From NCBI GenBank assembly GCA_964642385.1, contig CAZXON010000001.1, positions 150,532 to 214,531 on the forward strand: a stretch of 64,000 nt of DNA. Direction: 5' to 3'. The notes under the pieces were generated by a model. It ran no database searches, was not told the DNA's origin, and was given only the letters and a program-made list of their open reading frames with translations. This DNA comes from an uncultured Candidatus Peribacteria bacterium (lineage in GTDB: Bacteria > Patescibacteriota > Gracilibacteria > Absconditabacterales > Absconditicoccaceae). Of this stretch, positions 1-64,000 are shown piece by piece (position 1 is the stretch's first letter; the number at the start of each line of letters is the position of its first letter). The translations under genes were made by a program, and so were the position numbers.

Positions 1-159
1 AACTGCCATCTTTATGAATAGGAATAAAAAAGTATCCTTGCGGATTAGGATAGTGTATTTTTTCGCTTATTAATTGCAATCAAAAATGAAAAAAATGCAG
101 GAAATTAGAATATATTAAATTGCACAAAAGGACTATAACAATAATCGAAAAAATAAAAA

Positions 160-2460
160 TTATTCTTCCTCATTTTCATGGATTAGGTTTACCTCGTTCT
201 CTTTTCAAACCTCATCATAAGCTATTGTTTGGATTCCCTCTGGGACATGTGCTAATTCTTTGAATTTTTTCTTACCCAAGTTCATGTAATCTAAAATCTC
301 CCACAATTTCATCCATCAAATATTTTCCGTATTTGGCATATAAATTCAAATTTTATCAGACCGGTTAGGTAACAAATATGAGTGTTGTTGCTTAGAAAGT
401 CAAAGATTTGAACAAATAAAAAGATTATCTGCAATATATGGGTCATGCAAGTTTTGGGCTATAAGCAAACCTTTTGGTAATTTTGATGTTTTTTGTTTAA
501 CATCCGCATAAAAAATAAATTTACCTTGCTTGATAAAATAATTAATAATTTCAACAATGGTTTTGTCGATATCGACAGAATTTCTTCTATCTCTACACAC
601 GAACTGTGATATGTCTTGCTTGATGCCATTTCAAAAATCAATAATAGAATATTTTTCCCCTTTCCCTGCGACCTGATTCGCCATTTTCTTAAGATGAGTT
701 TCAACCATCCTTGTAATTTGTCTTAGTGGTTTCATGAACATGCTGTTACTCGCTGTATTTATAGCTCTTTCTGCATTCCTAATATTATAATTTGCCAATC
801 ATACATTGTTTTCTAGATCATCAAATTGTAACTCAACTCCTTTTTGTCTAATCTCCCCATCTTGATCTACGTAGTTACAAATTATGTTTTCTTTGAAATC
901 TTTATAAGCACCATTATTTCATCTACTAGATCCCTTAGAAAAATTATCATAATGTTTGCATAGTATGCTCCATTTTTCTGTGTCGGAGTAAACCGTAGGA
1001 TAGTTTGTTTTCATAAGTTGAGTCCATTCTTCTTTTTTGATGTAAGGATTTTCTTTAGGCTGTCTTTTTTGCACTGTTGTTTCTGGCAACAATGTAGAAA
1101 TCGATTTTTGCAGTTCTTCTATTTGATTCTCGTCTAATACTGATTTATTGTCAAATACCACAGATTGAATCATAAATTTTTTCCCTTTAATATCTTGTAA
1201 TAGGTCACTTCAAAAAACATCAGAACTCATATTTACGTTTAATCTTGCCAATCGGTTTTCGCTAATTTCTTTTATGTCGTTAAAATGAGCAGTGTTTGCA
1301 TCTTCTATAGAAACACGAAAACCCATTATATCATTTAGTTTTTTTCCTTCTATAATTTTTTCTATGCATGAAGAAAGTGATTTTAATCTGGCGGTTATGA
1401 TAAAATTATTGCCCGTTTTTTGATTATATGTTTTTACTTCTGTTTTTAGTAACTCAACAGCTTTTTCAAACATTTTCCTGGTAGCAGTACTCCATTGGAA
1501 CGTGGTTGTATCTCTTGAAAGGAAAGCATCTGTATGAAACTCTAAAGATGGGTCTGTGCAAGCCCATAACATATCTGAATATTGTCATGTTTTTTTTGTC
1601 CATTCCGCATCTCAATCTTGTCATCATGTTGAAGATGGATTATGTTTTTTGTGAGAAAGCAGATAACAAAGCACATTCACATATGAGTCAAAAGATTTTA
1701 TTTCATCACTACCAATAAAAGGGAAATCTCCATCGTGAAAAACTTGATTTAGATCACCTCCTCGCTCTTTCCAAACGGTGTTTACGTTGCTAAAAATAGC
1801 CGATATATACTTAAGCGATTTTTGGGATATTGAAACTGTTTCTTTTCAATCTATTTCAACTAGATCAAACGCCTCGTTTCCCAATCTTTCTTGTAATATT
1901 TTTGCGACTTTTGAAATAACATTAAATTTTTCAAGAGAGATATCATCTTTGCTGTTTTTGTGTTCCTTGTGATATCCTCTCAAAAATTTTTCATAAAAAA
2001 GGTGGCTTCTTAGATATTCTATATTTGGTTTGCGTAAATATTCATCAAAAAAATGATTAATTCACTCCTTATATTTTATAAGAATAGTATCATCTGTAAT
2101 ATTCCTTTCAAGGAGATCAAAAAGTTGGTTTTTGACATTGTTTTCATTATATTCGACAGTCGCTCTTTTTATATTTGCTGGATTTGCCAAATACTTATCA
2201 TTTTCCTCTCTCATAAGTTCTCTAATTTTGAATTTTTTGGTGATAGATAATCCTCTGGAAGTCGCTTCTCTTGCCTTATGTATCCTATTTAAAAGCAAGA
2301 GTTCATTTAATGTACATTTAATCTCTTTTTCGAGTTTTCCATATTGTTTTTTTTCTTTTTCTGTGTGTAATATTAGATTGCTTTTATCAGAAAAATTCGA
2401 TTCTTGTGATCAAGGAGCGTCATGTAAGTGGTTTTTTATATTTTTTGGAAGATGGGACAC
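160..2460 (-). CDS. large (~765 aa) protein with a split RelA/SpoT-like nucleotidyltransferase core; no HD hydrolase, TGS or ACT region recognised
   Basis: Track fragments 400-600, 919-1173, 1210-1572 and 2062-2298 share one frame and are separated only by TGA. Hand translation with TGA=Gly is open from ~2550 down to TAA 160-162. Motifs ITARLKSLSSCIEKIIEGKKLNDIMGFRVSIED and GAYKDFKENIICNY..GVELQFDD resemble RSH synthetase strands. There is no in-frame ATG at the 5' end (candidates GTG 2458-2460 or TTG 2518-2520), so the start is uncertain. Confidence 0.55.
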
Positions 2461-2635
2461 TTTTATGCATTTGTAATATAAATAAACATGATTATTGCTA
2501 GTTTTATATATAATACACAAAACAGAGAAAATGTCAATAAAAAGATTCGATTATATAGATGAATAAGCTCAATATTTTTCGATTCTACAAAGAAATAACT
2601 ATACTATAAGTGTGTTTTATAAAAAAACAAAAAAA

Positions 2636-4672
2636 ATGTCATCACTACTCAACCAATATTTTGATACAAACTATACAAACGCCATAAAACAGGGCTGATT
2701 TCCAGAGTATGTTTTACCCAAAACAAATACTCCAACCGGCGAAAAATGATTTTTTAATGAATTTTTTTGATGGATTTTTGGTACAGTAAAAAAGGATAAT
2801 AAGAAGGATGAATTCAATCCAGAACAAGAAAAAACAGATGCAGAGAAATCTAATATTTCACTACAAGAACAACTCAGAGAAATTGTTCGCATACCAGATA
2901 AGGACTATTCGGACAAGATGCTCAGCTCTTCAATGAGAGCATATATACAAGGGGTTGAAAAGGAATATATCGCTTCTCTGTGAGATTATAAATCACACAT
3001 CGCGCCAAGTTATTGGGAAGTCAAAGGGAACATTGCAAACATTTCTGGTCTATATGGCAAAACATACTACGCTGAAAACTACCCTTCTTACATGGAAGCT
3101 CTCTGGACTAGAGACCTTTTTGGGTTTTATAGTAAGTGGGATATGACATGGTTTATTTATCCAGAAGACGACGCATCTATTCAATCAGTTCTAAAAAGAC
3201 GTGCGACACAACTTAAAGCTGAATTGAATGATCTAACAGCAAAAGGAATAACAGTAGATACAGACGTACAGCTAGAATATCGTGACGTGGAAGAGATTAG
3301 ACAAAAACTTGCTACTCGTGAAGAAAGATATTTTGAAGTGTCTCATTATTTTTCTCTCTATACGCCTGAGGAAAAAAAGATGGATGAGGAAGGGAAAAAG
3401 TATGAACAAAAGGCTTCTTGATATGGAATGAGAGTAAAACCAGCCACGCAACGTATGGATGAAGGGATAAAAAGTTGCACACCATTAGGGATTGATGACC
3501 TATGAATCACTAGAAGCATGGTAACCACCTCTCTAGCAGGAGCATTTCCTTTTATCGCAAACGATTTAATTGAACAAACTGGAATTCTGTATGGAATCAA
3601 CCAACAAACCTGATCACTTATTATTTTTGATAGATTTTCAGGTAAACTTCCGAATGCAAATAGTATCGTACTTGCAACATCAGGTGCAGGTAAATCATTT
3701 ACTGTAAAACTAGAAATCCTCAGATATCTATTGCTTGGAATTCCTACGATTGTAATCGATCCGGAGAACGAATACAAAGCGCTTTGTGACAAAGTAGGCG
3801 GTACGTATGTAAATATCGCAATGAACTCTTCGCAATATATAAACCCTTTTGATCTACCTCCGAAATTAGAAGACTCAGAATACTGACCTTGAGACCTATT
3901 AAGATCACAAATTGCAAGTTTAATCTGAATGATTTCAGTGCTAATCAACGGTTTGAATGCTGAAGAAGAAGCACTTCTGGATAAGGCATTACAATCAACG
4001 TATGCTTTGAAAGAGATCACTCTTGATCGCTCTGACTACTCTGACAAAAAACCACCATTGATGGAAGATCTAATAAATGTACTTGAAGGTATGGAATGAG
4101 GCAATCTCCTTGCGGTAAAATTAAGCAAATATTCTAGCGGAACATTTTGAAAACTCTTTAACAACCCGACAAACGTTAATCTAGATAGTCCTCTAACTGT
4201 TTTTAGTATAAGAGATATTGAAGAATCTCTAAAAACACCAGCGATGTACAACGTTCTTAATTATATCTGGGCAATGATTAGATCCAGAAAACAAAAAAGA
4301 TTGCTTGTGGTAGATGAGGCATGGATTATGATGAAAAACGAAATATCAGCCAGCTTTTTATTCGGTATGATAAAAAGAGCAAGGAAATATGGGCTCGGCA
4401 TCAGTACTATTTCACAAGACATTGAAGATTTCGCGAATTCCAACTATGGTAAACCGATTATTTCCAACTCAGCAACACAAATTTTGCTTAAACAATCAAC
4501 CGCTTCTATCAAAACATTAGATCAACTCATAGGGCTATCAGACGCAGAAAAAGAACGTCTTATATCAGCGTGAATTGGGGAAGGACTACTGTTTGCAGGG
4601 AGCCATCATATTGGAGCAAAGATTATCGCTTCAGCATATGAAAAAGAATTTATCACTACAAATGTAAAATAA
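2636..4672 (+). CDS. virB4: VirB4/TrbE-family type IV secretion/conjugation ATPase (678 aa)
   Basis: ATG 2636. Track pieces 3092-3421 and 4244-4573 are in the same frame and join across TGA. Walker A LATSGAGKSFT, Walker B RLLVVDEAW, STISQD. TAA 4670-4672 overlaps the next ATG. Confidence 0.85.
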
Positions 4673-5052
4673 TGAGTCCAGAAAATCAAAATAGTATGAT
4701 TGAGACCAAACAGTTGGTGGCTCTTGCCTCGGTGTTGTTTCTTGCTCCAGCGATAAAACCAACATTGGAAGCAAACAATATTACCTTTTCGGAACAAGAC
4801 AAACCTTTTATAGAAAGCTATCTTCAATATGGTAATTATCTATTGTATGCTCTTGGCGGTAGTCTATTCATGTTGCTACTAGGCAAGTATGTATTTCAAA
4901 ATAAAATTTTTGTTGATATCTCACAAGCAGTTGCTGCTTTTGTAATAATTGCTGTTTTGCTCGGTATCTTCGCAATCTTTCGCAAAAAACAAATAATTAT
5001 TGATAAAAAAATAACACGAAACAACATCATGTCACTTGTAGAAAAAAAATAA
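4672..5052 (+). CDS. small polytopic membrane protein (126 aa), function unknown
   Basis: Intact ORF in the track, translationally coupled to the VirB4 stop (TAATG). Three hydrophobic helices. No TGA codons. Confidence 0.6.
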   Translation: MSPENQNSMIETKQLVALASVLFLAPAIKPTLEANNITFSEQDKPFIESYLQYGNYLLYALGGSLFMLLLGKYVFQNKIFVDISQAVAAFVIIAVLLGIFAIFRKKQIIIDKKITRNNIMSLVEKK

Positions 5053-8612: not shown

Positions 8613-10292
8613 ATGAATTACAATATCCACTGTGAAAAAGAAGACAACAATATACCACTAAAAGAAAGATTATTAAAAGCAAGAAACATTTCTGACAGCC
8701 CAGATGATTTCTTTAATCCTACTTTTTCTCGTTATCGACAATCGCCACGAGAGATACATGACATGGAAAAAGCAGTTGCGAGAATCATACAATCGATTGA
8801 GAAAAAAGAAAAAATTATGATATTTGGAGACTACGATGTCGATGGCGTTTGTTCTAGTTTTTCACTGTACAAATTTTTCAAAGAATTCTTGCACTACCCC
8901 GACATAAGCATTAGACTCCCACATAGATTGGATGATGGATATGGGATAAAAACATACCATTTGGATGAAATCCACGCCGTAGGCGTCAACTTGGTTATCA
9001 CAGTGGACAACGGCATCACTGCGATACAAGAAGCGAAACATGCGAAAGAATTATGATTAGATTTGATTATTACCGACCATCACAAACAACTACAAGAAAT
9101 TCCTGATGCTCTTGCGGTGGTAAATCCACAAATATCCGAGAATGTCCGCTTCAAAGAAATATGCGGAACAACGGTAGCATTCAAAGTAATACAGGCCCTC
9201 ACCGAGCGTCTCATAACCGATCAAAAAGTGAAAAATAACATATTTCATTATTTTTTACCACTTGTGACGATCGCAACTGTCGCCGATTGTATGCCACTTC
9301 TTGACGAAAATAGGCTTCTTGTAAAATACTGATTACACTGTATCAACGCAAAAAAATGAATTCCTCCTTCTATCCAATGATTTATTGATTCGTTAAAAAT
9401 AAAATGACCACTTGAGACATATCATATAAGTTTCATGGTTGCGCCCAGGTTAAACGCATGATGAAGAGTGCAAACGCCATATGAAAGTTTGTACACATTG
9501 ATGTTTAGCTGAGAAAAACAAGCAACATACATTGAGAATTTAGAAAAGCTAAACACCCAAAGAAAAAAATTGCAAGAAGATAGCGCGAAAACCGCAGAAA
9601 CCATGATCAATCCAGAAGATCCGTTTATCCTTGTGTGAGACAAAACATTTCATGAAGGAATTATTTGAATTGTCGCAGGAAGACTCGCAGAAAAATACAA
9701 CAAACCAACCATCATCTATGCAGAAAACGAGGAAACCGGCTTCGCCGTGGCTTCGCTTCGCTCGCCAGAATACGCAAGCGTGATTGATTTACTCTATGCA
9801 AGTAGTGACCTCTTAGAGCGCTACGGTGGCCATAAACAAGCGGGTTGACTAACAATAAAAATAGAAAATATTCCTGCGTTTCATCAGACGATTACAACTT
9901 TTTCACAACAACGACTGTTGACCTCAAAAGAAAAAAAATATGAAATTGATAGCATCCTATATCCTCACGAATACACAAGTGAAAGTCTAGAAATAGCAAA
10001 CAGTTTCGCTCCATTCGGGGAAGGCAATAAGGAACCAACTTTTTTCTTTGAACATGTATTGGTAGAAAAAATAGAAAAAGTCGGCAAAAATGGAAATGGA
10101 CATTTGAAAATACACGCTCGCTATGAAGACACAGCAATCAACGCTCTTTTTCGATGAGCAGGAGCTGACGTTGAACAATTGAAACCATGAATGATTGTGA
10201 ATCTTATCGGGACGCTCCAAAAAGATGACTACCGTGGTGGTGTTTATATAAAAGGAACAGATTGGGAAATCGTATGAAGTGACGAACAATAA
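8613..10292 (+). CDS. recJ: single-stranded-DNA-specific exonuclease RecJ (559 aa)
   Basis: Track pieces 8613-9056, 9063-9332 and 9918-10157 are all in one frame. DHH motifs FGDYDVDG, ITVDNGI and ITDHH. APRLNAGGR and HEGIIGIVAGRL have Gly at TGA codons. TAA 10290-10292. Confidence 0.92.
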
Positions 10293-13929: not shown

Positions 13930-16900
13930 TTATTCTATATTAGCTTTGATATAATCTGTAAATTCCTGGTCATATATTTTAGTGAATTTTTTCTCTCAAT
14001 ATTTGTAAAATTGAGCTATAGATTCTGCTCGAAATTCTTGGCATCATGCATATCATCAAGGGCCATTTTGTTGAAAATAAGAGGTTAGATTGTTATAAAA
14101 TCTTTTATGAAATTCTTTAAATTTTGGGGAATTTGTAATATTAAAAATATTATCTATTGAATGTCATAATTCATGTAGGACAAGTGATTTACTACCATGT
14201 CTTCCTTCTCATGAATACACTCTATTTCATTTACTCGCTCAAGCAACACTATCTCGAGTATTTCATTTATCCCATCAACGTGGCTGGACTCATTTAAACT
14301 TTATGTTATCTTCTCGTCCAGTAAATGTTTGGTTTGATAAAAATATTACAATTTCACTTTTTCATATTTTTTTAAGGGTTTTATCTGATAATAAATTTAA
14401 GTCATCAAGATGCTCTTTCACTATTTTTTGCTCAAAGTTTCTAATGACCAAATTTTCTGAAATTACTCAAAGTCTAGGATATTCTATTATCACATCTTTT
14501 ATGGTTGATTGATCCTTTAATCATTCTACAAAGAGACTTCTTTTCTCAGATAAACCAAGATCATGTCATGGGATTTCTTTTTTCAAAAAAACTTTTTTTT
14601 CTAATCGCTTATTGTATATTTCTTTTTTTATCGACCTGCTTTCTTTTATCAAATCTTTATTTGACTTGTCAAAAATTAATTGACTTTCAATATCTTTTAT
14701 TTTTTTTTGAAGTATTATTATTTCTTCATTAATTTGTCTTATTTTTCTTTCTAATTCAGCATCTTTTAAAGCATTTTTCAAAGCATTACTTTTCAACTCC
14801 AATAACTTAATACTATTTTGATAATCAATTTCACTTATATTTAATTTTTTAAATCAAATTGGATTAATTTTCGGGTCATTTGCTTTCAGATGACTGAGCA
14901 TATCATCTACAGGTAACTTGGCATGAAATCATCATGACACCATGAAAAATACTGTTGCCATCATTCATCATGCTCTGATCATTTGCAAAATATCTACGTT
15001 TTCTTGTTTATCAAACAATTCATTTACTCACATTTGTCTTACTCATTCTGCTGTTGCTCATACGGTTACATCAAGAAGATTAATTCATAAATTGGAAGTT
15101 ATATATTTTACATCATTGAAAAATCAAGGACTTTTTTGGATAATTGGTCAAAAAACTTTCATACCAAGAAATGCCGTTGCTGTATCAAACACAAATTGAC
15201 TTGATATATCTACTGCTCACTCTGCGAAACTGTTATAATCCATTTTCTTATAAAGCATTTGTGTCAATATTCATTGCGTTACTCAAACAGCTATTGCTGA
15301 TGTTGTAACACTAGCAAGTGTCATTACTCATGCTGCACCAGCTGGCGGGAAAATCATCATAGATATCATTGTTCATCATAGCATAGCTCACATTTTTAAT
15401 CATTCTTTGATATATCAAGTATACTTCATAATCTCATCATCCACTTCATCAGATAATTGTCCTGCCCAAAAACTATTGACTGCAAAATCTCTATATAAAT
15501 TTAAAATTTCTGTGTCTGCTCATTGTAATCAGTATTCTTGTGCTGATTTTGCATAACTACTTAAATTATCCTTTCCCGCTTTCTTTATTTCTCCTTTAAA
15601 CTTCTTTTTTTGAGTTTCAAATTTTACTTGTTGCATTTTTGCTTCCTTTGTTCACAAGTTTTTCAGTTCTTGAATATATTTAGCTTCAAACGGAACTTGT
15701 TTAAGGTCAGATTTTATTTTTTCAGAGATTTTTTTGAGTACAATAGTCCTTGCTTGTAATGTTGGTGATAATTGGGATATTTTTGTTTTTTCATCGACAG
15801 ATATAAGATCTAAAATCCCAAATTCTCATGATAGTGGTCGTGGTATGTTTTGACTAACTTCCGCTATAAAACTTTCACATTTTTTATTTTTTAGAGTTGG
15901 TTCATCTTGCAATACATCTACTGGACTAATTTTATCTATTGTTCCGTTTATTTGCATCAAATTTTCTAAAATTTCTTTTGCTAATTCTGGATTATTAAAC
16001 TTTTTATCATTGTCTTTTTGCTTCATTCTACCTGCACCTGTGCTATTGAATCTTCAAGTTAAAATGTTACATAACTTTATTAAGCTCTTTTTTGCTGTTT
16101 CTGGGTTCGTTTGTAGTTCTCCAAATCATTTTGCTTGTGCAAGTAGATAACAAGTATTTATAATTTCAATTCTCATACCTTCTTGATTGTCTACTGCTAT
16201 TTTTAGTTCACTTCATTCTATTTTCTTTCAAGTTTTATTTGATCGTTTTTCATCTCATAAAGAACAATGAAACTTCCATACATAATTTATTACCTGAGTT
16301 GAATTGATGCTTGGATTACTAAAGACATTTTCGATAATTTTTTGTATTTTTTCTTTTTCGTTGTAGGTCATTTCTTTGATGTTATCGTTATATAGTATTC
16401 AATTTGGCACAGAAGTAAGTTCATCTAAAACACTAATTGTATTTTTGTTTTTCAATTCTTCTAATTTTTTAGATAAAGGTCTCGTAGTTATTTCTCTATT
16501 TTCTGTATGTTGTATTAATTTTTGTAAGGGGTTGTGTTTTTTTGCATTTTCTATTTGTTGAGGTATTTGCAATTGTTCACCATTCAATCGTTTTATATCT
16601 GGATGATTCATATTTATTGGTCAAGCAGGGTAGCTTATATCTTTCCCTTTGCTTTTATTGAAATTAAACATATTTCATTTGAATCATTTTTTGAATTCAT
16701 TCCATCAATCTTGTCATAATCCATACCAGATTCCTTTTGATTTCATATACTTTTCAGCCATTTTCTGATTTGTTGTTTTTTCTCGATCTCCACTTCTATT
16801 TGCATTCATACCATAACTCATGAAGTATAGTTTTACTATCTTCATTTCATTTACAGATAATGATTGCTTATTCAAAAGATCTTTTTTTTGTATATTCTCA

Positions 16901-17079
16901 AAAATTGGTTTTTGTAATAAAGTCAAAAAATGCTGATCTTTCGCTTCTAGTCATTCACTGATTTTTTTATAATCTATCTGATCTAATTTACCAAAATTAT
17001 CATTAAACTCTTTCTCAGAGATAACTCATTTTTGATTGTCAGTATCGAGTCTTGTTTTGATGGTATTGATGTCACTCAT
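13930..17079 (-). CDS. giant protein (1049 aa): N-terminal unknown region, Gly-rich membrane-helix region, coiled coil, C-terminal anthrax-LF/PPEP-like (ATLF) HExxH zinc peptidase domain
   Basis: Track pieces 14566-14802, 15826-16026, 16399-16611 and 16714-16926 share the frame of ATG 17079 and TAA 13930-13932. Codon-by-codon checks at 14161-14220 and 15181-15420. C-terminus reads ..KGVQPRGWDKGNTRDSVAGASKGNRVYSGEGRHGSKSLVLHELGHSIDN...EFRAESIAQFY. Dozens of TGA (Gly) codons. Confidence 0.75.
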
Positions 17080-23181: not shown

Positions 23182-24588
<1,407 letters not shown>

Positions 24589-31182: not shown

Positions 31183-31698
31183 ATGGAAAAACAACATCAC
31201 GCAACAATTCAGACGAACAAATGATCAATTCGCGTTATTTTGTACCACGAAGAAGCACCACATACGGTCGCTAATTTTATTGCTCTTTCAAACAATAAGT
31301 TTTATGATGGACTATCATTCCACCGCGTAATAGATGATTTTATGATACAAGCATGATGCCCACATTGAGATGGAACTGGATGACCATGATATCACTTTCC
31401 AGATGAGTTTCACCCATCGCTAAAACATTCATGACCAGGTGTCCTCTCTATGGCAAATTCATGACCGAACACCAATGGTAGCCAATTTTTCATCACGCAT
31501 ATAGAAACTCCTCGGCTAGATGCTAGACACAGCGTCTTTGGGAAAATCGTTGATGAAACTGATCTAGAAATCGTAAATAATATCGTGCAGTGAGACACGA
31601 TAGAAACAATTGAAATTCACGACATCCCAAAACTTCCAGAACAAGCAGAAAAATTTATGGAAGAAATAAACCAATTCCTACAAAGTAGCACCAATTAA
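31183..31698 (+). CDS. ppiB: peptidyl-prolyl cis-trans isomerase, cyclophilin type (171 aa)
   Basis: Motifs [49 protein letters not shown] and HSVFGKIV. Eight of 14 Gly positions are TGA. TAA 31696-31698. Confidence 0.92.
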
Positions 31699-31732: not shown

Positions 31733-32383
31733 ATGATGTCACAATTGATTGATTTTATAATGCATATTGATGTTCATCTAGCAAACCTCATCGCATCATA
31801 CGGCGGTCGAGTATACGGTATATTATTTGCGATCATATTCATTGAAACAGGGCTTGTGATCATGCCATTTTTGCCTGGAGACAGTCTTTTGTTCGCTGCG
31901 GGATCCTTTGCTGCTATTGGCTCTTTGAATATACGGTTGCTTGTATGATTACTTATGGTTGCAGCAATTTTATGAGACAATGTCAATTTTTACATCGGAA
32001 GATATTTTGGCGACAAGCTAACAAACCGAAAGATCAAATGACGCAAACTTATCAAACCTGAACACCTAGAAAAGACACATACTTTTTTCCAGAAGCATTG
32101 AGATATATCTATCGTTTTAGCCCGCTTCGTCCCTATCGTAAGGACGCTTGCTCCTTTTGTAGCTTGAATCGGGAAAATGAATCATATCAAATTTTTCATC
32201 TATAATATCGTTGGTTGAATTGTGTGGATTTCGCTTCTCACTTTTGCTGGTTATTTCTTTTGACAAAATCCACGAGTTCAACACAATTTTGAATTTGTCG
32301 TCATAGGTATAGTTTTCGTATCTATCCTCCCAATGATTATACCATATTTCATACACAAAATCAAAGAACGAAGGAAAAAATAA
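31733..32383 (+). CDS. DedA/VTT-domain membrane protein (216 aa)
   Basis: Motifs ..[22 protein letters not shown].. and ..[16 protein letters not shown]... Track ORF 31733-31948 extends across TGA to TAA 32381-32383. Confidence 0.85.
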
Positions 32384-32486: not shown

Positions 32487-33824
32487 ATGAAAAAACATTT
32501 ACAAATAAAAACATTCATTATTATTTTTCTAGGTGCATTATTTGTTTGGGCTGTTCCGCAAACGCACGCATACTCACTTGGATTAAAATCTCGAGACAAT
32601 TCTATTACAAATATTCAACGAGTTGAAAAAACGCTCAAAACAGAGCTTCCGCTTGTATCTTTTATTTTCCATACGTGGGATGAGTTTGCTTATAATACGG
32701 TTGCAAAATTTCCATATGATTTAGGAAGAGAAAGAATTTACCATATAACATTGGCTCCAGAGCATTATACCGCTCAAGAAGTGGCAGATGGAAAAGCAGA
32801 TGAAATATATAGCAATTTTTTTCTCCTAATAAAAGAAAATCGCCTAAAAGTAATTTTTAGAACGATGCATGAAATGAACTGATGATGGTATCCTCGATCA
32901 TCCGACCCAACAGCATTTAAAAAAGCACGAATTCGCATCCGAGATCTTTCTAGAAAAGCATGATTGACCAAAAAGGAAATTCTTTTTGATATGTCACTAA
33001 ACGCTTGGGATATGCCAACAAAAGATGCTAGACCAAATCAAAGTTCACCACTTATGTATTGTTATCCGGTGCAAAAACAGAAACTAAATTGCCCAACATT
33101 TGAGGACTACTATCCATGAGATGAGTATGTAGACATTCTTGGAGTCTCTTTTTATAATCGATGAAAAGGTAACACAAATCGTCTACGACAAGCTCCATAT
33201 GAGATCATAAACAATTCACAATGGAAAACTCTTGATAGGATGAAAACGTTTAACAAACCTTTGTTCGTGGATGAAGTTGGGACAACAGCAGTGCGATATG
33301 ATGAACAATATAATCAACAAAAGTCTATTGAAACATACCAGACAGATGCCCGAAGAAAAGATGCATGGCTAGATAGTTTAGGCGAGTTTTTGCAAAACGA
33401 ATCAGATATCATTGGTAGTGTCTATTTCAATGTCGATCTCACCTATTGACTAACAAATCGAATTGTTGGGGAAGCAGATCGATCTATTTTCGATCCAGCG
33501 ACAGGCAAAATCTATGAATGATGAAGGCGTCTTTTGAATAACGCCAACCACAATAAAGCTAACTACTCAGCACTTTTCAATGCTTTCTGAGTTCACAAAG
33601 CAAATCGATGATCTTGAAAAGTTTTTGTTTGAAACGCATACGGGAACAAAGCTCTTTCTCTTCTAAAAACACTTTCTATCACTGCCACTACCCCATTTGC
33701 AAACGCAAAAAAGAAACTTGAAAACTACAAACAATCGATAGACGCCTCTACGACACTCTCACGTTCACAAAAAGCAATCCTACGCAATATTATTTGAGAA
33801 GCTATGCGTATTATTTGAGGGTAA
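32487..33824 (+). CDS. secreted GH26-like glycoside hydrolase (445 aa)
   Basis: Signal peptide present. Motifs ..VIFRTMHEMNGWWYP.. and ..KPLFVDEVGT... Track pieces 32487-32882 and 33240-33449 are co-framed. TAA 33822-33824. Confidence 0.65.
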
Positions 33825-37945: not shown

Positions 37946-39784
37946 TTATACAATATCTATTTCCGACTCCATTGAAACAGTGTACTCTCTTCGCATTTTT
38001 CTAAATACATTATCATTTGCAATAAGCGCATCAAACGAACCATGTTCCACTATACGTCATGCTTCGAAAACATAAATATGATCAAACAAAGGCAACAAGT
38101 GTAATTTGTGGATTGCCGCAATGATAGTTTTCTCATGAAATGCTTGAAATATATTTGTATAGATCTTTTTTTCATTGATACTATCTACGCTACTTGTTGA
38201 CTCATCTAACAACAAAATCTCACTTTTTTCAGCTGCGAGCAACCCACGCGCCAATGCTAAACGTTGTTTTTGCCCTCATGAAAGGTTTACTCACTTTTCT
38301 TTTATGCTTGTTTGATACTCGTTTGGCAGACTCAATGCTATATCATGAAACAACGCAATTTTTGCATATTTTTCTATCGTTTCTTGGGATACGTCTGTTC
38401 ACATTGCGATATTAAAAAGCATGGTTTCTTCAAATATTTCTGGTTCTTGTGGGACAAGAGATGTCTTATCTGATAAGACCTGGAGAGTATCAAAACCGCG
38501 ACCATCTATACTCACCCTGACACTATCAACATCATACAATCCACGCATCAACGAAAGAAAGGTCGATTTTCCACTTCCCGATTCGCCAATTAGAGCTATC
38601 TTGTCACCAACATTCCATTGCAAAGAAATATCACTAAGGATCAATGCTGGCTTTTGAAGCGTTTTTGCTCATGGGTCTTCGTGCGATTCATTATTTTCTA
38701 GATCATCATTTACATGTTGGTCATCATAAGAGAAAAACAAATTATCAATGTTCACAAAATCTTTGGCTGAAACAGATCTATAATCTTTTATGTTTTTGGT
38801 ATAAAGATTGTGCTCAGCTTCTATCGATTCAATAGCACTAATATTTGCACTAAATGTTAGGAGCTCTGAATACGACCAAGTTAGGTTATAAAAAGTATTT
38901 GCAAGACGTCCAGTATACCCAGAAATCATCGTCAAAACTCCAATCATAACAACTCCCTTACTTTGCCATTGTATAAGAACATATGCAATGATGATAGCAG
39001 CAGTAATGAATTCTAGTCATGAATCAGTCACAAACCACTTTTGTTCATTTCTTAGAATATGTTTTTTGAATGGCTCTTTTTGCTCTTGCATTGCCTTTGA
39101 AAGAGACATTTCGGTCGGTGAGAGAAATCTAAGTGTTATTAACGTTCTAATATTTGAAAGATAATCAAACAACAATCAACTTACTTTGTGCGCTAGTGTG
39201 TTTTCTTCTTTAATCCATGCAACAATTTTTTTATCAAATCGATTTATCACAAAAATCATACATATAAAAAGTACAAACATTCCAACGCTTAAAATGGGCC
39301 ACAAAAGGATCAATGCAATTAATGCTCAAATAAATGATACGAATGTGCCTAGATTCTGTGATATATTTGAACCAAAACTTTTCAATGCACTGACTGCTTT
39401 ATTTATTCTATCAATTGTTTCTCCCGAATGATTATTGGTATGCCAAACCATAGGAAGAACAATTGTTTTGTGATACAGATCTTCTCTGTATCTTTTTGCG
39501 GTATCAAAAGCTAGATTTTCCTCTCTCACACGTGCTGGGCCATGAAAAGCCCATTCCATAAATGGCAAAATTAATGTTGCAATGGCATAGGGCAACAAAT
39601 TATGTATCATATTTTCTCATCCCTCTTGCACAATGACTAAAGACTTACCAAAAAGATATGGTCATAAAAGAGATATGGCACGCGAAGTAAACTGCATCAG
39701 CATGAATACAATCGCCTTCCTCTTAGAAGGAACATAGCGTCGATATTGGCGCAATAAAATTATATATGGGTTATTTTTTATCAT
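37946..39784 (-). CDS. ABC exporter, fused permease/ATPase (612 aa)
   Basis: Track pieces 38057-38254, 38399-38644, 38669-38947 and 39326-39610 are co-framed. Walker A GESGSGKST, signature LSGGQKQR (first Gly is TGA 38276-38278), Walker B ILLLDEST. Confidence 0.9.
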
Positions 39785-39973: not shown

Positions 39974-40624
39974 TTATTTTTTTCTTCGCAGAGCATAACA
40001 AATCTTTCTTCATTCACCAATTGCTAGATTTTCATAGTGTGTCTGGATACCGAAATGGTCAGCGAGTAATTTTTCATCAGCATGTAAATCAATTGTTTTT
40101 TCAACCAATGTTCGTTGATCCTTTTGTAGATCAACCTGAGCAAGTGAATACGCAAACAACTCACTGTCATCAGTTTTCAATCTTAGGGATCATCAGCTTT
40201 TCAAAACAGAATGATACATTTGTAGAAATCTTGGATGTGTCAAACGTCTCTTTTCATCGCGTCATTTTGGTCTTGGATCTGGATGAACTATCCGAATTTC
40301 ATCAATACTATTTGGCATAAACCATCTATCAAGATGATGTACGATACCACAGACAAAACGAACATTTTGCAACCCCAATGCATGTGTATTATCTAATCAC
40401 ACGCCAATTCTATCTCACTTACTATCAATACCGACGAAGAGAGTGTCTAGAAAATATTGCGCTAGTCACACAGTATACTCTCACCTTCCACAAGCAATTT
40501 CCAGAACCACACCAGCGTACTGTTTTTGCTCTTCTACAAAAATTTTATGTGGTTTATCTATCCCCTTTATCACCCGAGGATCAGCACTAATACGAGCATA
40601 TCTATGTAATTTTTGACGAGGCAT
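39974..40624 (-). CDS. trmB: tRNA (guanine-N7)-methyltransferase (216 aa)
   Basis: Motifs VLEIACGRGEYTV, FVGIDSKG and RIVHPDPRPKGRDEKRRL. ATG at 40624, TAA at 39974-39976. Confidence 0.85.
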
Positions 40625-40633
40625 AATCGCAAT

Positions 40634-42082
40634 CTAAACATACCATAAAGGAAATTTTTTGCATAATTCTTGTACTTCTAGAAGCAACGTAGACAGCATA
40701 TTTTCATCACCATAATTTTCCCGTGCACGCGAAATGATAGATGCAATCTGCTTCATCTCAGCTTCTCACAATCATCTTGATGTAATTGCTGGCGTACCAA
40801 TTCTCACTCAACTTGGATCCATTGGCGTGCGTTGATCAAATGGTAACAGATTTTTATTTATAGAAATACCAACTTTTTCTAGCGTTTGTTCTGCTATTTT
40901 CCCAGTTAATGGAGTGGGTTCCCATCCAGCTGCTGGTACTCTTTTCCTTGTCACATCAATCAATATCATATGATTTTCCGTAGTATCACTCAAGACATCC
41001 CATCCAAAAGCTCTTAGATAATCTGCCAATAATTTTGCGTTCTGTACAACTTTTTTGGCGTAACTCTTGAAAGTTGGTTGCAAAACTTCTTCTAGCGCGA
41101 CTGCTTTTGCGTACATTTCATGTACATGTGGTCATCATTGCAATCATGGAAACACGCCGCGATTTATGGATTTTTCCAGATCTTTTTGTTCTACCGACAT
41201 TTTTCATCATTGCAAAAAGTCCACTCCTATATTGTATTCTCATTCTACATTTCTTCGTCATCTTCTCATATAAATCATCGCTCCTCTTGGTCCACGAAGT
41301 GTTTTGTGTGTTGTTGTCGTAATAATATCAAAATATGGAAAAGGAGAAGATAAGACCTCCCCAGCGATCAGGCCAGCGATATGCGAGATATCAGCCATCA
41401 GAAGCGGACGGTACCCATGAATATTGCTGACTTCGTCAGCAATCGCAGCAAAGTTTTGCCAATCTATGTTTTTAGGGTATGCACTGAATCACGCAACTAT
41501 CATTGCTGGTTTCTCTTGCAATGCTTTGCTGCGAAGTTCGTCATAATCTATCTGGAACGTTTCTGGTTTCACTCCATAGGGAATAAAATTGTAGTAAATT
41601 GTAGATGAATTTAATGGATGTCCATGTGAGAGATGTCAACCTGCATTTAATGACATCGCAAGGACGGTATCTCATGGTTTGAGAACTCACATATAGACAG
41701 CAAGATTAGCGGGAGAGCCACTCAGTGGTTGTACATTCACTCCCCACGTTTGCGTAAAAGCGTCAAACGCATTTGTTGTATGTATATCTTGAAAAATATT
41801 TTCTAGAGCCGTCGATTCTGGTTTTTCAAATGGATTTTCTTTCCATAGACCAAAAACTTGAAGTGCCAATTTCTGTGTATAACGCTCCAATTCATCAACA
41901 TTTATCTGTCATCCATAATAACGGGCTCATGGATATCCTTCAGAGTATTTGTTGGTAAAAACATTTGCATATGCGCGCAGAACATCATCAGAAACATAGT
42001 TTTCTGAGGCAATCATTTCCAATTCATTTTCTTGGCGATTGCGCTCATTTGAAAGAATATGTGTTAGTTTATCTGAAACCAT
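40634..42082 (-). CDS. glyA: serine hydroxymethyltransferase (482 aa)
   Basis: Motif [45 protein letters not shown]. Track pieces 40808-41116 and 41687-41890 are co-framed. TAG at 40634-40636. Confidence 0.92.
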
Positions 42083-42211: not shown

Positions 42212-43225
42212 TTAAAAACGCAAATGTATCTTTTTGCCTTTCACGGTCACTGTTCTCTCCTTTTCCAATCAAGTCACAATTTTTACAATATCTTTTTCTG
42301 GAAAGTGAGTTTGAATTGCATCAAGAGAAAGTGATTTTGATTTTTTTCATTTTATTCCGATCGTCTTTAGCGTTTTATCGTCTACGAGTTGCTTCAAGAT
42401 CCAGCCTCTCACCTCACGATCCGAACCGGTAAACGGCGATTGTTTTGCAGATTGGATTCCTGTTACTTTACTGTGTAAAACCATTGATCCATAATCCATT
42501 AAGGCATTGTGTCGCTCACGAGATCTTCAAAAGGGAACGAGCGATAGAGCAAACACTTGTAAATCAAACAACGAAATATTTTCTGCTAACCCAAAAGCAT
42601 GGATAAGCACTCTTTTTATGTTAATATCTATCACAGGCACCTCAAAATTGTATGAGAAAGCCAAAATCGCATTCGCTGTATATTCACCAACTCATGGCAA
42701 AGTGCGCAAATATGAGTAATCTTGCATACTTTGAGCTATTAATTGTTCACATTTATCCCACATTTTGTCGGAAACTTGTGGAAAACTAGCTTGGTATAGG
42801 GATTTTTTAGAAACGATTGGGCGATTTACAGCTCTATTCATTCAATTATCAACTCAATTATTTTGAATGCGATTGTATCAAGCCACAGATAAAGCATCGT
42901 CAATTATTTTTTTACTCGCTTCATGGAGGTATATGGCTCTACGATTAAATCCCAACCCAGACCACTCTGACAGGACTTCTACGCGACTCGATTGCGCAAG
43001 CGCCAAAACAGTTGGCCATTTTTTCATCCATCCATTAAACTTTTGTATCACCCTTGATACTTGTGTTTGTTGTAACATTATCTCTGAAACAAGAATTTTA
43101 TATGGATCTTGCGTTTTCCTCCACGGCAAATCTCTCTTGTTTTTCTCATACCATCCAAGAATTTTTTGTTGAAATTCTTTTTTCTCTACAGACGAGATAG
43201 TTTCTCATATATTCTGTTTTCTCAT
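42212..43225 (-). CDS. MutY-like HhH-GPD DNA glycosylase (337 aa); no 4Fe-4S Cys motif seen
   Basis: Motif ..WYEKNKRDLPWRKTQDPYKILVSEIMLQQTQVSRV...WSGLGFNRRA..LPGVGEYTANAI... Track ORF 42878-43129 is in frame. TAA at 42212-42214. Confidence 0.8.
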
Positions 43226-51304: not shown

Positions 51305-51391
51305 TGGTGCCTGAAGGGGGAATCGAACCCCCACTCCCTTGCAGGAACCAGATTTTGAGTCTAGCGCGTCTACCAGTTCCGCCATCCAGGC
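51305..51391 (-). tRNA. tRNA-Leu (anticodon CAA), class II with long variable arm, CCA encoded
   Basis: Minus-strand sequence is GCCTGGA-TG-GCGG..-CTAGA-CTCAAAA-TCTGG-TTCCTGCAAGGGAGT-GGGGG-TTCGATT-CCCCC-TTCAGGC-ACCA. All four stems pair, and the anticodon loop is C-U-CAA-A-A. Confidence 0.9.
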
Positions 51392-51566: not shown

Positions 51567-51989
51567 ATGGCAATTGATCTTAACAGAGTGATGATCCTTG
51601 GGAGATGCGCAAGTGACCTAGAAGTGAAAAAGATTGAATCAACTGGTTCTTCTGTTGTAAACTTCACAGTCGCAACAAACAGAAAGTACAAAAACAAAGA
51701 TGGTAATCTTTTAGAAGAAGCTGAATATCATAGATGTGTAGCCTATGCCAATAGCGCTGATGTGCTTGGAAAATATCTTGTAAAAGGCAAAAAAATTTAT
51801 GTAGAAGGTAGATTGAAAACCAGAAAACGACAAGATAGCAATGGTGCTGACAGATACTCAACTGAAATTATCGTTGAAAACTTCATCTTCTTAGATCCTA
51901 AGTGACCTCAAGGAGAAACCGAAACATTTGTAGCAGAACACGAAGAAGAAATTGCACATGATATCCCTACCGACGATCTACCATTCTAG
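51567..51989 (+). CDS. ssb: single-stranded DNA-binding protein (140 aa)
   Basis: OB-fold reads ..NRVMILGRCASDLEVKK...AEYHRCVAY..KGKKIYVEGRLKTRK... The acidic tail ..DIPTDDLPF is reached only by reading through TGA 51903-51905. TAG 51987-51989. Confidence 0.9.
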
Positions 51990-52074: not shown

Positions 52075-52728
52075 ATGACCTCATTTATTTTTAAGACCTC
52101 AAATGAAAATCTCTGAGGACGGAAACGCTCTGTCCTTGAGATTTTTGATATATTTGCATTTCTCGTATTTATTGCAGGTGCCGCTTGAATCGTAAGGTTT
52201 TTTGTATTCATGCCATATACAGTGGAATGATCAAGCATGGCGAGTACTTTTCACAATAAAGACTTCATCCTTGTGGACAAAATAACACCAAGATATGGCA
52301 CGCTCAATAGAGGAGATGTTATTGTTTTCATACCGCCATGAAAAGATGTACCTTTCATAAAAAGAATCGTTTGATTACCTGGAGAAAAAATTAAAATATT
52401 CGGAGGGAATGTATATATTTGCCCTAGCGGAACAGGAAACAATAATGATTGTATAGAACTCCCTGAGGGCTACCTTATCAATGAATGATGAAAAAAAAGT
52501 GAAACCGAAGCTAGATGCTGAATTTCCTCATTTGAAATAACTGGTGGATATTTCGTAATGTGAGACAATAGATGATACAGCACAGATTCCCGCTGTTGTT
52601 TTGGTTTATGATGTACAGCCAACAGTCAATATGTTGTAGCGACGGATCATATTATAGGCAAGGTATTTGCAAGAGTATTACCTACTCTTACTTCTTTCAC
52701 AAATCAATCCATTTGGTATACTAAATAA
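52075..52728 (+). CDS. lepB: signal peptidase I (217 aa)
   Basis: Motifs PYTVEGSSMASTF, GDVIVF, IKRIVGLPGEKI and VMGDNRGYSTDSR. ATG 52075, TAA 52726-52728. Confidence 0.88.
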
Positions 52729-55695: not shown

Positions 55696-56358
55696 TTATT
55701 TGTGAATATATGTTACTCTATGCTCTTTTGAGAGTCAATATTTTTGTATGGCTTGAAAGTGCCCTTTGGTTCAATAACCTTTATGAAGATGGAAATCATA
55801 CTGTGGTAAACGCTTTGCTACACGATACATGTACGCATCACGTTCGACCTTCGCAATAATAGAAGCCGCAGAAATCATTGGTATCTTTGCATCGCCATCT
55901 ATCACGGGGACAACGGTAATTCAAAGGGCCTTTTTTAATCCAAAATCACTTGGTCCATCAATAACGAGTGTTATCTGGTATTCTATGGTTTGTATCCATT
56001 GGGTAAGCGAAATTACGCTATATTTTCCACCCACGAAATGTGCGTGCAAAGCACGCATTATCCCCTGGCGTAACGCCCAAACTATTCAATACCTATCGAT
56101 ATCTTTGGCTGAAATCTTCGCGGTGGATCGTTGAATTTTTTTGTTATCCTGTAATTCTTTAAAAAGTCTATTTCTTGCGCCCTCAGACAGTATTTTGCTG
56201 TCCTTATATGAAATATAATCAGCAATATCGCGAGCTGGGAAAACATGTCAAATATTCCAAACAGTAATCTTCGCGGGAACGTTTTCAATAATCAACCCCA
56301 CTTGGACTGGTCAAGCCAAAGGTCCACGACCGGCTTCATCTATGTAGATGTAATACAT
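55696..56358 (-). CDS. rnhB: ribonuclease HII (220 aa)
   Basis: Motifs [43 protein letters not shown] and HKGYGTKGH. Six Gly positions are TGA. TAA at 55696-55698. Confidence 0.92.
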
Positions 56359-56367: not shown

Positions 56368-57189
56368 TTATCAAATAGATTGCAATTGCACCAAATTCCA
56401 AAACAAACTTGCTACCGTAACTGGTCAAACCCCTCATGGAACAGGAGTCAATGCTTGCACTTTTCATATAACCTTTTCTGTATACACATCTCATGCTGGT
56501 TTGCCTTCTCGTATACCCCATCACGCATCCACAATAATTTGATTTTTTCACAAAAACCTTTCATCTACTAGGTGTAAACTTCCTGTACAAGCCATGATAT
56601 AATCGCTTTTTCTGCAAATTTCGCGCATATCTTCTTGATTTGAAAACTCGTTAAATGTATATACATTTGCTCATAGATCGTGAAGTTTTTGTGCCAATGG
56701 TTTTCAAATCAATCAACTTTCTCCAAGTACTGCAATATTTTTGCCCACGTACTTACCGTATCAATAAAATGATAATATTGTCATTATCGCACTTGGCGTT
56801 GCAGGAAGTAACAAAGCATGATCTGATAAACCGTCTGTATCTTTTTTCGGTGAAACAGCGTTCAATATTTCTGTTTGATGTTCTTGTAAATCTGCTGGCA
56901 ATGGAAGTTGCACGATAACTCCAAGGCACATTTCATCGTGATTACATACCGCAATTTGTGCAAGAACATCTGAAAGATTTGCGTAATCTGTGTATACTTG
57001 CGCACTCAGTCACAACTTCTGTGCATACTCTATTTTTTTGCGAACATAGACCATAGATGGATGATCGAGACCACTTTCTCTTAGCGCGAAAATTGCAAGA
57101 TATCAAGCAACTTGATTATCTAGGATATATTGGTGTGTTTTCAAAAACAATTGTTCTGCAACCGGTGCGCCGTATAGTAGTTGAGTCAT
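56368..57189 (-). CDS. folD: bifunctional methylene-THF dehydrogenase/methenyl-THF cyclohydrolase (273 aa)
   Basis: Motifs LAIFALRESGLDHPSMVYVRKK, VIVQLPLP, KDTDG, ATPSAIM, VLGESGLIGKPLA and TPVPGGVGPVTVA. ATG at 57189. TAA at 56368-56370, 9 nt before the rnhB start. Confidence 0.92.
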
Positions 57190-61925: not shown

Positions 61926-62705
61926 TTACGGATGCAAAACCCAATCGTTTTGAAAAATGTTTTCAACTGTATCCTCATATTTTGCAAGATAATATTCCAT
62001 TATCTCTTCTTTTGTAAGGACGGTTTTTTGTACAGGCGTTGTCGGTACTGTGATTGTTTCTAGAGCAACAAAGTACTCTATACTGAATCTTTTTTTTAGT
62101 GCCGGAACGAAATCTTCGGATTTTTTCACAAGGCCAATTGTGAGCGTATCCGGCGTGACAATATAAACCACTTTTTCTTTTATTCCATTTGGTGGATATA
62201 AAATGTTGAGACGCTTTTCAAAGCCAATCATGAGTGGCTTAATTTCATCGCCAAAAACTTCTGTTTTGTACAACCAGTGCACATAGCTAAACGGCCATGT
62301 AGAATAAATTAGGTCATAGTCGTGCCTAAATTTCCTTACGTGCATAATCTGGTCGTATGGAAATCTTTCATAGTACATCGCATACGGGATGGTTTTTTCA
62401 TCCTGTTGACATAGTGAGTGCAACAACTGATACGGTAGCCACCACAAGCCATCATTTTCACGACAGATTTTTTGCCCCTCCTTCTCGATAGCCTCAGCCA
62501 CCACACGATACCCCGTACAGTTTTTACTGTACCAACAAGTTGTTTTCAACCGCCGGTATGCCGTTGGAAGAAGCTCAATCAACGCATTGTAATAGTAGTT
62601 TTCTTCAACTACTTTGGTGGCGGCTCCATTTGTGGATTGGGAGCGTACTTGTGAAAGACCATCAATTTCCGATTTTTTCTTTTTTTTCCAAAATGTTGTT
62701 TTCAT
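61926..62705 (-). CDS. hypothetical Trp/Tyr-rich protein (259 aa), free of TGA codons
   Basis: The longest intact ORF in the standard-code track. All 9 Gly residues are GGN codons. ATG at 62705, TAA at 61926-61928. No family recognised. Confidence 0.65.
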   Translation of the reverse strand: MKTTFWKKKKKSEIDGLSQVRSQSTNGAATKVVEENYYYNALIELLPTAYRRLKTTCWYSKNCTGYRVVAEAIEKEGQKICRENDGLWWLPYQLLHSLCQQDEKTIPYAMYYERFPYDQIMHVRKFRHDYDLIYSTWPFSYVHWLYKTEVFGDEIKPLMIGFEKRLNILYPPNGIKEKVVYIVTPDTLTIGLVKKSEDFVPALKKRFSIEYFVALETITVPTTPVQKTVLTKEEIMEYYLAKYEDTVENIFQNDWVLHP

Positions 62706-62998
62706 AGTCAATTTTTTTATTTATTTGTTTATTGTTTGTTTACTTATGCGATTTTCTATTCCCTAAACGAAACACCAAAAACGCAGTATGTCAAGTATAC
62801 CAAAATACAATTGTTTTGCAAGATAGATTTGTAGTCAAATTCGCACTTAAAATTCTCTCCCAAACAAGCGGAATCGTGCTTTTATGATTAGAATTGGCCT
62901 GTTGATCGTGGTATAAGTAAAACATTTCTAATACAAAATTTTGTCCGGAAAAAGAACTAGCAAAAAACCTAATAAGCACAAAGAACTACCAAGAAATA

Positions 62999-64000
62999 TT
63001 ACAGCGCCGTATAATCCACGAGATTGCTCTCTCCGGTTGCTCTTTTGACAACCTCTACCATATTTTCTCCTTCTGCAAGAGTTTTATCAGAGATAATTAT
63101 TTGATATGCATATCCTATCAAGTCAGCATCTTTCAATTTCATTCATGGAGAAATCGCTCTATCGTCAAGCATCACTTGATCACTTTCAGAACCAACTTCC
63201 ACTCAGTGTAATAAATGGTCATATATCTCTTGTGCTTTCTGAGTCGCTTTTTCGCCGATAGGGATGATGATATATGTAAATGGCGCAAGTGCTTCTGGCC
63301 AACAAATTCCTTTTTCATCGTGATACGCTTCTACAACCGTTCCCATCAATCTGCCAATACCGATACCATAACATCCCATGTAAACATGGTTTTTTTCGCC
63401 TTGCGAGTTTGTATATACAACATCAAACGGTTGAGAAAATTTGGTATTTAATTTAAATATATTTCCCACTTCGATAGTTTTGAGCTCTTTGAGTTGTTTA
63501 GCGTCAAGGTCGAACTCTACTCTTACTTCTGGGTCGTTGATTATCTCATCATTGAAAGCAATATTGGTAGTTTCATCCAAATAGATAGTATCCTCTCATG
63601 CAGCACATACTGTTTGAAATTCATGAGAAAATTTGCTAAAAGTTCATCCAGATGCATATGTCAAAAATGTTCTATCTGCAATTCACATCTTGTCAAAAAT
63701 ATTGATATATGCTTGCTTTTGGATTTCATAGTATCTATCAAGATCTTCAGCTGATGTATGAAAACTATAACAATCTTTCATCAAAAACTCACGTCCTCTC
63801 AACAATCACGACTTCGCTCTTTTTTCGTCACGAAATTTGCTTTGAAACTGATAGACAGCAAGTGGCAAATCTTGATACGATCAAATAAATTTTTTGATAA
63901 GCGGAGTTACAACCTCCTCATGCGTAGGGCCCAATGCGTACTCTATTTTAGAATAAAACGACGTAAATTTAAAAAGATTGTCCATATTATCCCAACGATC
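62999..64000 (-). CDS. proS: prolyl-tRNA synthetase, C-terminal part (gene runs off the window)
   Basis: Motif ..[36 protein letters not shown]... Track ORF 63203-63580 extends across TGA. TAA at 62999-63001. Confidence 0.88.

Follow-up and report, generated by a model that had tools for sequence, protein, structure and literature searches.

A stretch of Absconditabacteria-type DNA read with UGA as glycine and with CGA and CGG as tryptophan

Reading of UGA as glycine has been known in SR1 and Gracilibacteria since 2013. For the Absconditabacteria, Codetta predicted a further change, namely that CGA and CGG both encode tryptophan alongside the glycine codon UGA (Shulgina and Eddy 2021, PMC8629427), and the tryptophan assignment is given as fact in papers of 2026 (PMC13092985; bioRxiv 10.64898/2026.04.02.715157). 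In the 64,000-nt stretch of DNA analysed here (the window), alignments to standard-code homologues and codon exchange between orthologues make it very probable that the same code is in use: UGA would be read as glycine and CGA and CGG as tryptophan, with UAA and UAG as the sole stops, AGA, AGG, CGU and CGC as arginine codons and UGG as a tryptophan codon. Judged by these comparisons, the codons concerned form three synonym groups, i.e., UGA with GGN (glycine), UGG with CGA and CGG (tryptophan), and AGA and AGG with CGU and CGC (arginine). This three-codon code is already known. Apart from all three reassignments, the window shares with the published lineage (PMC8629427) a low GC content (34%) and AGA as dominant arginine codon.

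Other described codes resemble that of the window in part. NCBI translation table 25 likewise has UGA as glycine and UAA and UAG as sole stops, but keeps CGA and CGG as arginine, so that it would mistranslate 123 codons in the 62 open reading frames (ORFs) described below, or 105 in the 52 of them regarded as confident genes. An earlier note on this DNA had placed the whole window in code 25, a designation that goes only part of the way: table 25 alters UGA alone, yet CGA and CGG appear to be reassigned as well. Table 4 (Mycoplasma/Spiroplasma) has in common with the window a sense UGA in a small, low-GC bacterial genome, but assigns it to tryptophan instead of glycine. In Anaerococcus, Onthovivens and RFN20 Bacilli (PMC8629427; PMC13092985), an arginine codon of the CGN box was also captured for tryptophan at low GC content; there, however, CGG alone changed, while CGA stayed arginine and UGA a stop, whereas in the window the commoner CGA would be reassigned too.

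Reading frames and the meaning of UGA

With TAA, TAG and TGA all treated as stops, the window holds no ORF of at least 300 aa (longest, 264 aa), compared to 22 when TGA is sense (longest, 1137 aa). Reading either TAG or TAA as sense gave a single such ORF in each case, and because neither brings back long ORFs, UAA and UAG can be taken to stay stops. A greedy choice of non-overlapping ORFs with TAA and TAG as the only stops yielded the set of 62, which covers 86% of the window and carries 477 in-frame TGA codons at 1.8–4.2 per 100 codons in each 4-kb bin. The recoding is uniform over the whole window, and only TAA (49 ORF ends) and TAG (13) act as stops. Such a pattern goes well beyond chance. 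ORF lengths agree with those of homologues and with the public calls made on short Logan contigs from this organism, in which TGA is already read through.

Even with TGA masked as X, Pfam matches were obtained for 28 of the 62 ORFs, among them RecJ, RecG, an IMPDH-family protein, cyclophilin, serine hydroxymethyltransferase (SHMT), FolD, a SufS-like aminotransferase, a MurE-like ligase, SSB, signal peptidase I, RNase HII, TrmB, an ABC exporter, HU and a sigma-70 factor; ProRS and HflX are further housekeeping genes of the window. No phage signature was seen among the window genes, either in the Pfam matches or in the public calls. The 52 confident genes contain 440 TGA, 83 CGA, 22 CGG and 132 TGG codons, and all 62 ORFs together 98 CGA and 25 CGG.

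Read as glycine, TGA would be the most frequent glycine codon of the 62 ORFs and would raise the glycine content from 4.1% (GGN alone) to 6.7%; read as tryptophan, it would raise the tryptophan content from 0.9% (TGG alone) to 3.5%. Eight proteins, in which X took the place of TGA, were aligned to sequences from the PDB, for which the genetic code is not in doubt. Here, 44 of the 64 aligned TGA codons lie opposite glycine and none opposite tryptophan, distributed over cyclophilin (6/7), SHMT (11/13, in 1kkj), the IMPDH-family protein (9/10, in 7oy9), FolD (7/11), RNase HII (1/4), signal peptidase (3/5), SSB (1/1) and RecJ (6/13). In a column tally of cyclophilin with 120 homologues among the matches listed, all multi-domain cyclophilins, glycine makes up 88–100% in six of the eight TGA columns, which in this respect resemble the GGN-encoded ones. 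For the GH26 glycosyl hydrolase, an outgroup of 67 standard-code sequences was recovered from GTDB genomes, in which the columns of TGA132, TGA159 and TGA211 hold glycine in 49/58, 35/45 and 12/12 cases, respectively. Replacement of X by G furthermore lifted the Pfam score in every comparable family, e.g., by 32 bits for PGA_cap, 21 bits for the C-terminal domain of FolD and 13 bits for cyclophilin.

The same meaning of TGA emerges from codon exchange between orthologues, for which we used the syntenic loci L004 (81% amino-acid identity) and L006 (GCA_965188785.1, 57%) plus twelve GTDB loci. Over these 14 loci, TGA or GGN is the partner of 349 out of the 437 TGA codons aligned, and the substitutions of TGA (n = 255) comprise 167 GGN and not a single TGG. 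By all these alignments, UGA is a glycine codon, neither a tryptophan codon nor a stop, and tables 11 and 4 are excluded.

On this point, the comparisons bear out the earlier note, which had read UGA as glycine and dismissed tables 11 and 4. Its warning that genes called here with the standard code are wrong is likewise supported, and its statement that TAA or TAG closes every gene holds by construction once TGA counts as sense. The motifs and coordinates it quoted are all present (cyclophilin, LS-G-GQKQR, the SSB tail, RNase HII, RecJ, the IMPDH-like protein, signal peptidase and HEL-G-H). Its claim that the TGA codons fall on invariant glycines does not hold for HS-G-PG, which is variable (G 39, K 32 and R 23 of 120 homologues among the matches listed), nor for the second X of GDNR-G-Y (L in 4nv4), GY-G-T (P in E. 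coli RNase HII) or APRLNA-GG-R, where solved RecJ sequences have V or A at the first G; the x of HExxH is not a constrained position either.

CGA and CGG at tryptophan positions

CGA and CGG occur on conserved tryptophan columns in which arginine is found in 0–1 of 52–119 standard-code homologues. CGG111 of cyclophilin occupies the sole tryptophan-dominated column of the family (W 74, H 42, R 0 of 119 homologues among the matches listed), and CGA88 of SSB coincides with the conserved tryptophan of the ‘TRKW’ motif, which is W in 4/4 solved SSB sequences among the matches listed. Similarly, CGA77 of RNase HII lies opposite a tryptophan of the E. coli enzyme and CGA514 of RecJ opposite one in the solved RecJ 8y30. 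The other CGA and CGG sites that could be aligned to PDB sequences lie in columns that vary (V or L), with no conserved arginine among them. In the GH26 outgroup, the column of CGA137 holds W 44, Y 11 and R 0, and that of CGA148 W 28, Y 13, F 9 and R 1; the control columns behaved as expected from their codons, with W in 51/58 at TGG134 and R in 43/58 at AGA125.

A further line of evidence comes from the machine-translated proteins of the lineage, represented by 119 relatives of the GH26 protein that carry the names Absconditabacterales, SR1, Absconditicoccaceae or ‘Peribacteria’. At the TGG columns of the window these read R in 60% and W in 27% of cases, e.g., R 102 and W 17 at the tryptophan of HEMNGGW, and the conserved CGA columns show the same mix of W and R only. 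By contrast, the columns of AGA125, AGA156, AGG251 and CGT232 are R-only, and the AGA, AGG and CGT columns overall are R-only or R/K, with zero W. From this comparison, the W/R-only columns are best described as the outcome of applying a wrong table to TGG and CGA/CGG codons that are synonymous, and not as real protein evolution.

Codon exchange with the 14 loci separates the same groups. Among 213 aligned CGA codons of the window, 144 stand opposite TGG, CGA or CGG and six opposite AGA, AGG, CGT or CGC; the corresponding counts are 17 and 0 of 25 for CGG, 125 and 0 of 173 for TGG, 6 and 165 of 251 for AGA, and 0 and 82 of 122 for CGT. Considering only TGG versus AGA/AGG as partners, the ratio is 42:4 for CGA vs. 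0:23 for CGT (Fisher p = 1.5e-14). At ten sites, a CGA or CGG of the window is TGG in at least one relative, including TrmB 17, 111 and 213, cyclophilin 111, SHMT 454, DedA 68, HhH-GPD 238 and DUF2461 122, and the variable CGA/CGG sites exchange with codons for Leu, Phe, His and Thr, not with those for Arg or Lys. Placing W instead of R at CGA and CGG raised the Pfam scores of RecJ_OB (+7.7 bits), SSB (+4.9), GH26 (+4.5), VTT (+3.3) and cyclophilin (+2.4), with a net change of about +17.5 bits. This test is supportive but mixed, an outcome to be expected because many of the sites are lineage-specific.

In the confident genes, CGA and CGG make up about 44% of the tryptophan codons if read in this way (83 + 22 vs. 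132 TGG), and 34–76% in close relatives. CGA is used 52–54 times per 10,000 codons in whole ORFs, 45 times in Pfam-supported genes and 42–104 times in the closest relatives, whereas the arginine codons reach 182 (AGA, the main one), 51 (AGG), 69 (CGT) and 45 (CGC). For the published lineage, CGA was reported at ‘<37 per 10,000 in all species’ (PMC8629427), a lower value, but one for aligned Pfam columns and thus not an identical measure to our 52–54 in whole ORFs. The share of about 44% suggests a later stage of reassignment than that of the published lineage code.

Decoding and competing explanations

Following the literature on the lineage, UGA would be read by a tRNA-Gly with the anticodon UCA, with release factor 2 being absent, while tRNA(UCG) and tRNA(CCG) carrying tryptophan instead of arginine identity would read CGA and CGG, and a separate tRNA-Arg(GCG) would keep CGU and CGC as arginine codons. 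Candidate Phyla Radiation bacteria have no tRNA-Arg(ACG) and rely on tRNA(GCG) for CGU and CGC and on tRNA(UCG) and tRNA(CCG) for CGA and CGG (PMC8629427; gTranslate preprint). As the latter two are separate from tRNA(GCG), a change of their identity would carry CGA and CGG to tryptophan together.

A relative of the window offers a candidate for the first of these tRNAs. At 12129-12202 (-) of locus L012, there is a class-I tRNA of 74 nt whose anticodon is UCA and whose G1:C72, C2:G71, G3:C70 and U73 correspond to the glycine identity set. It belongs to a cluster at 11507-12202 (-) with tRNAs Ala-UGC, Arg-UCU and Tyr-GUA, in which ARAGORN labels the glycine-type UCA tRNA as SeC (selenocysteine). 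The cluster follows immediately downstream of the GH26 gene, which in L012 has zero TGA, and is flanked by genes for small lineage-specific hypothetical proteins; the window has no tRNA at the matching place. Scanning 16 loci of the lineage for recoding tRNAs revealed tRNA(UCA) in L012 only and tRNA(UCG) or tRNA(CCG) in none. Among the Pfam matches in the approximately 70 kb of window plus flank there is no release factor 2 domain, an absence that carries no weight for the whole genome.

Several points weigh against the three-codon code. The window and about 6 kb of extra flank contain none of tRNA(UCA), tRNA(UCG) and tRNA(CCG); the recovered flanks, about 5.3 kb on the left (L33, S16, EF-G, GatC) and 0.9 kb on the right, are free of tRNAs, and an Rfam scan of the window returned nothing but tRNA-Leu. 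On the side of the alignments, 6 of the 213 aligned CGA codons face true arginine codons, the 25 aligned CGG codons are a smaller sample than that of CGA, and some sites are variable and uninformative (FolD 227, V in 6v6y; RecJ 434, L; SHMT 454, L). Moreover, W for R lowered the Pfam scores of DUF2461 (-3.7 bits) and Aminotran_5 (-2.8 bits), and the sequence comparison would be compatible with some ambiguous decoding at a low level. The arginine of ‘PDP-R-PK’ in TrmB was considered as a possible counter-example and rejected, its codon being AGA (40271-40273) and kept as AGA in relatives. Many bacterial TrmBs carry tryptophan at this position, and the AGA, one nucleotide from CGA, may reflect a fixed change from tryptophan (CGA) to arginine (AGA).

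Among the alternatives, the two that deny UGA its glycine meaning are refuted. Under table 4, as used in Mycoplasmatales and some endosymbionts, UGA would be tryptophan, which would suit the low GC content, the in-frame TGA codons and a public homologue deposited as ‘gcode 4’; the complete lack of tryptophan opposite TGA in the solved-structure homologues, the exchanges with GGN and never with TGG, and the implausible composition of 3.5% tryptophan at only 4.1% glycine speak against it. A standard code with pseudogenes, sequencing errors, selenocysteine or programmed read-through, or a recoded phage, would explain that in-frame TGA is present and nothing more. The 477 TGA codons extend over essentially all genes, are concentrated on conserved glycine columns and recur in the same pattern in syntenic relatives, and the genes themselves (SHMT, FolD, MurE-like, RecJ, RecG, SSB, ProRS, HflX) are housekeeping genes without a phage signature.

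The two remaining alternatives concern CGA and CGG. Plain table 25, in which UGA is glycine and both these codons arginine, has the full support of the TGA evidence for its first half, is assigned to the lineage by current pipelines (gTranslate preprint) and gains from the two Pfam families that score slightly higher with R. We nevertheless regard it as highly improbable, given the near absence of arginine from the tryptophan columns of standard-code homologues, the opposite partners of CGA and CGT in orthologues, and the W/R-only columns in relatives, for which real substitution between arginine and tryptophan cannot account. Ambiguous decoding of CGA and/or CGG as both arginine and tryptophan, or a reassignment still in transition, could draw on the six exchanges with true arginine codons, the mixed Pfam shifts, a ‘complicated history’ of CGG in the sister Gracilibacteria (PMC8629427) and the arginine-like use of CGA in the distant relatives L017 and L018. 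It appears very unlikely all the same: the two codons account for about 44% of the tryptophan-type codons and stand at strictly conserved tryptophan sites where arginine would be harmful, and in its spectrum of exchanges CGA cannot be told apart from TGG.

If the three-codon code is accepted, one may further speculate that tryptophan codons in this clade are moving from UGG to CGA and CGG to escape misreading, an idea we consider rather doubtful. Here, U34 of tRNA-Gly(UCA) would wobble onto UGG and place glycine at tryptophan sites, and the capture of CGA and CGG would be a compensatory second step instead of an independent accident. The shares of CGA and CGG in the window and its close relatives, which lie above the lineage report, would fit such a course, as would the GH26 relatives, which read ‘R’ in 86–87% at columns 134 and 137 vs. 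35% at column 148, counts that are not phylogenetically independent. In these proteins, the most conserved tryptophan columns of the catalytic site are those most often encoded by CGA or CGG.

Annotation, lineage and further features

The value of settling the code is practical and not conceptual, as every reading of the window depends on it. Table 11 shatters every gene, and table 4 writes tryptophan at about 440–477 glycine sites. Table 25, which NCBI, GTDB-based tools and gTranslate apply to the lineage, gets the ORF boundaries right, but would write arginine at about 44% of the tryptophan sites and thereby miss critical residues, e.g., W88 of SSB or the tryptophans after the HEMNG motif of GH26. 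Public GH26 proteins of the lineage show such systematic Trp-to-Arg errors, with ‘R’ at about 60% of conserved tryptophan positions. Errors of this kind lower homology scores and corrupt the profiles of families, and structure predictions for the lineage would be led astray by them. Other findings on the window are to be re-read with UGA as glycine and CGA and CGG as tryptophan.

Homologue names and synteny indicate, with high confidence and at class level, that the window stems from the chromosome of an uncultured bacterium belonging to the Absconditabacteria (SR1)/GTDB class JAEDAM01. The named GH26 homologues are from Absconditabacterales, SR1, Absconditicoccaceae and Absconditabacteria, and the syntenic relatives (L004, L006 and L008-L015) are recoded metagenome-assembled genomes (MAGs), consistent with the SR1/Absconditabacteria and Gracilibacteria affiliation named in the earlier note. 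In the distant Gracilibacteria-type loci L017 and L018, AGA usage is low, CGA usage is high and TGG stands where the window has CGA, a pattern that fits CGA still being arginine there.

Labels in public collections do not always match this picture. Several recoded MAGs (among L008, L010, L012, L013, L015 and L019) are labelled ‘Candidatus Peribacteria’, a name that NCBI places in Peregrinibacteriota, and these labels look wrong. In locus L016 (JAEEHF010000115.1), assigned to the bin ‘Bacillota bacterium Tb.RUG.116’, ORFs contain 17–19 in-frame TGA and have CGA at tryptophan positions, which points to mis-binned DNA of the recoded lineage. The organism of the window itself, recognised by identical HU and neighbouring genes, occurs on short contigs in at least five runs from a single SRA series (SRR8925725, SRR8925755, SRR8925788, SRR8925813 and SRR8925824) and on a short contig of ENA ERZ28614736, and an 81%-identical relative is present on a 188-kb ENA contig, ERZ15185023 NODE_45.

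Table 1. Genes and sites of the window; positions are nucleotides of the 64,000-nt stretch.
Feature	Position	Strand	Sites and remarks
VirB4/TraG-like ATPase	2636-4672		member of secretion/pilus-like cluster
Small membrane protein	4672-5052		member of the same cluster
Gene with faint T4SS-pilin match in public calls	5081-6028		member of the same cluster
Prepilin-peptidase-like gene	~7577-8557	+	member of the same cluster
RecJ	8613..10292	+	14 TGA; CGA514 at 10152-10154
Giant 1049-aa ORF	13930..17079	-	C-terminal HELGH; no Pfam match; 28% GC
IMPDH/GMP-reductase-family	23182..24471	-	10 TGA
Cyclophilin	31183..31698	+	8 TGA and 6 GGN (14 Gly positions); CGG111 at 31513-31515, CGA in L004, TGG in L006
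DedA/VTT membrane protein	31733..32383	+	CGG 31934-31936 within hydrophobic helix, TGG in relatives
GH26 glycosyl hydrolase	32487..33824	+	14 TGA, 12 CGA, 6 TGG; CGA137 at 32895-32897, CGA148 at 32928-32930
ABC exporter	37946..39784	-	TGA 38276-38278, first Gly of LSGGQ signature
TrmB	39974..40624	-	CGG 40574-40576, CGG 40292-40294 and CGA 39986-39988, TGG or CGA/CGG in relatives
SHMT	40634..42082	-	16 TGA; CGG454, TGG in L004
HhH-GPD glycosylase	42212..43225	-	CGA 42512-42514, TGG in relatives
tRNA-Leu(CAA)	51305..51391	-	only tRNA of the window; no recoding tRNA
SSB	51567..51989	+	TGA 51903-51905, to be read through for the acidic tail ...DIPTDDLPF; CGA88 at 51828-51830
Signal peptidase I	52075..52728	+	11 TGA; Gly in 4nv4 at VE-G-SSM, IV-G-LPG and G of GDNR
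RNase HII	55696..56358	-	6 TGA; CGA77 at 56128-56130
FolD	56368..57189	-	13 TGA; CGA227 at variable position

The load of TGA differs between genes in a few instances. The giant ORF ending in HELGH has the highest load of the window, 52 TGA vs. 23 GGN (p = 1.6e-7), and is the sole gene whose TGA share of glycine codons deviates significantly from the window mean. A second giant ORF without a Pfam match, of 1097 aa, lies at 25248-28541 (-). At the other end, four small genes (43491-44000, 45579-46133, 48841-49116 and 61926-62705) have zero TGA and 8–13 GGN glycine codons. The nominal p was 0.003–0.015 for three of them, while HU (48841-49116) was not under the reporting cut of 0.02. Islands of standard code were rejected as an explanation, these values not being significant after correction; the pattern could have arisen by chance, or TGA may be avoided in strongly expressed genes, of which HU is an example.

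The 107-codon ORF at 51298-51621 (+) is spurious and overlaps the opposite-strand tRNA-Leu(CAA). The greedy set also mis-called 6196-8463, where the public calls for L002 have the peptidase and, on the minus strand, a gene of 452 aa. The latter region is part of a cluster at 2636-8557 that resembles a type IV secretion or pilus system (Table 1). The product of the IMPDH-family gene, finally, matches the mycobacterial GMP reductase 7oy9 with E = 6e-113 vs. about 1e-62 for the best solved IMPDH and, by this similarity, may be a GuaB1-type GMP reductase.

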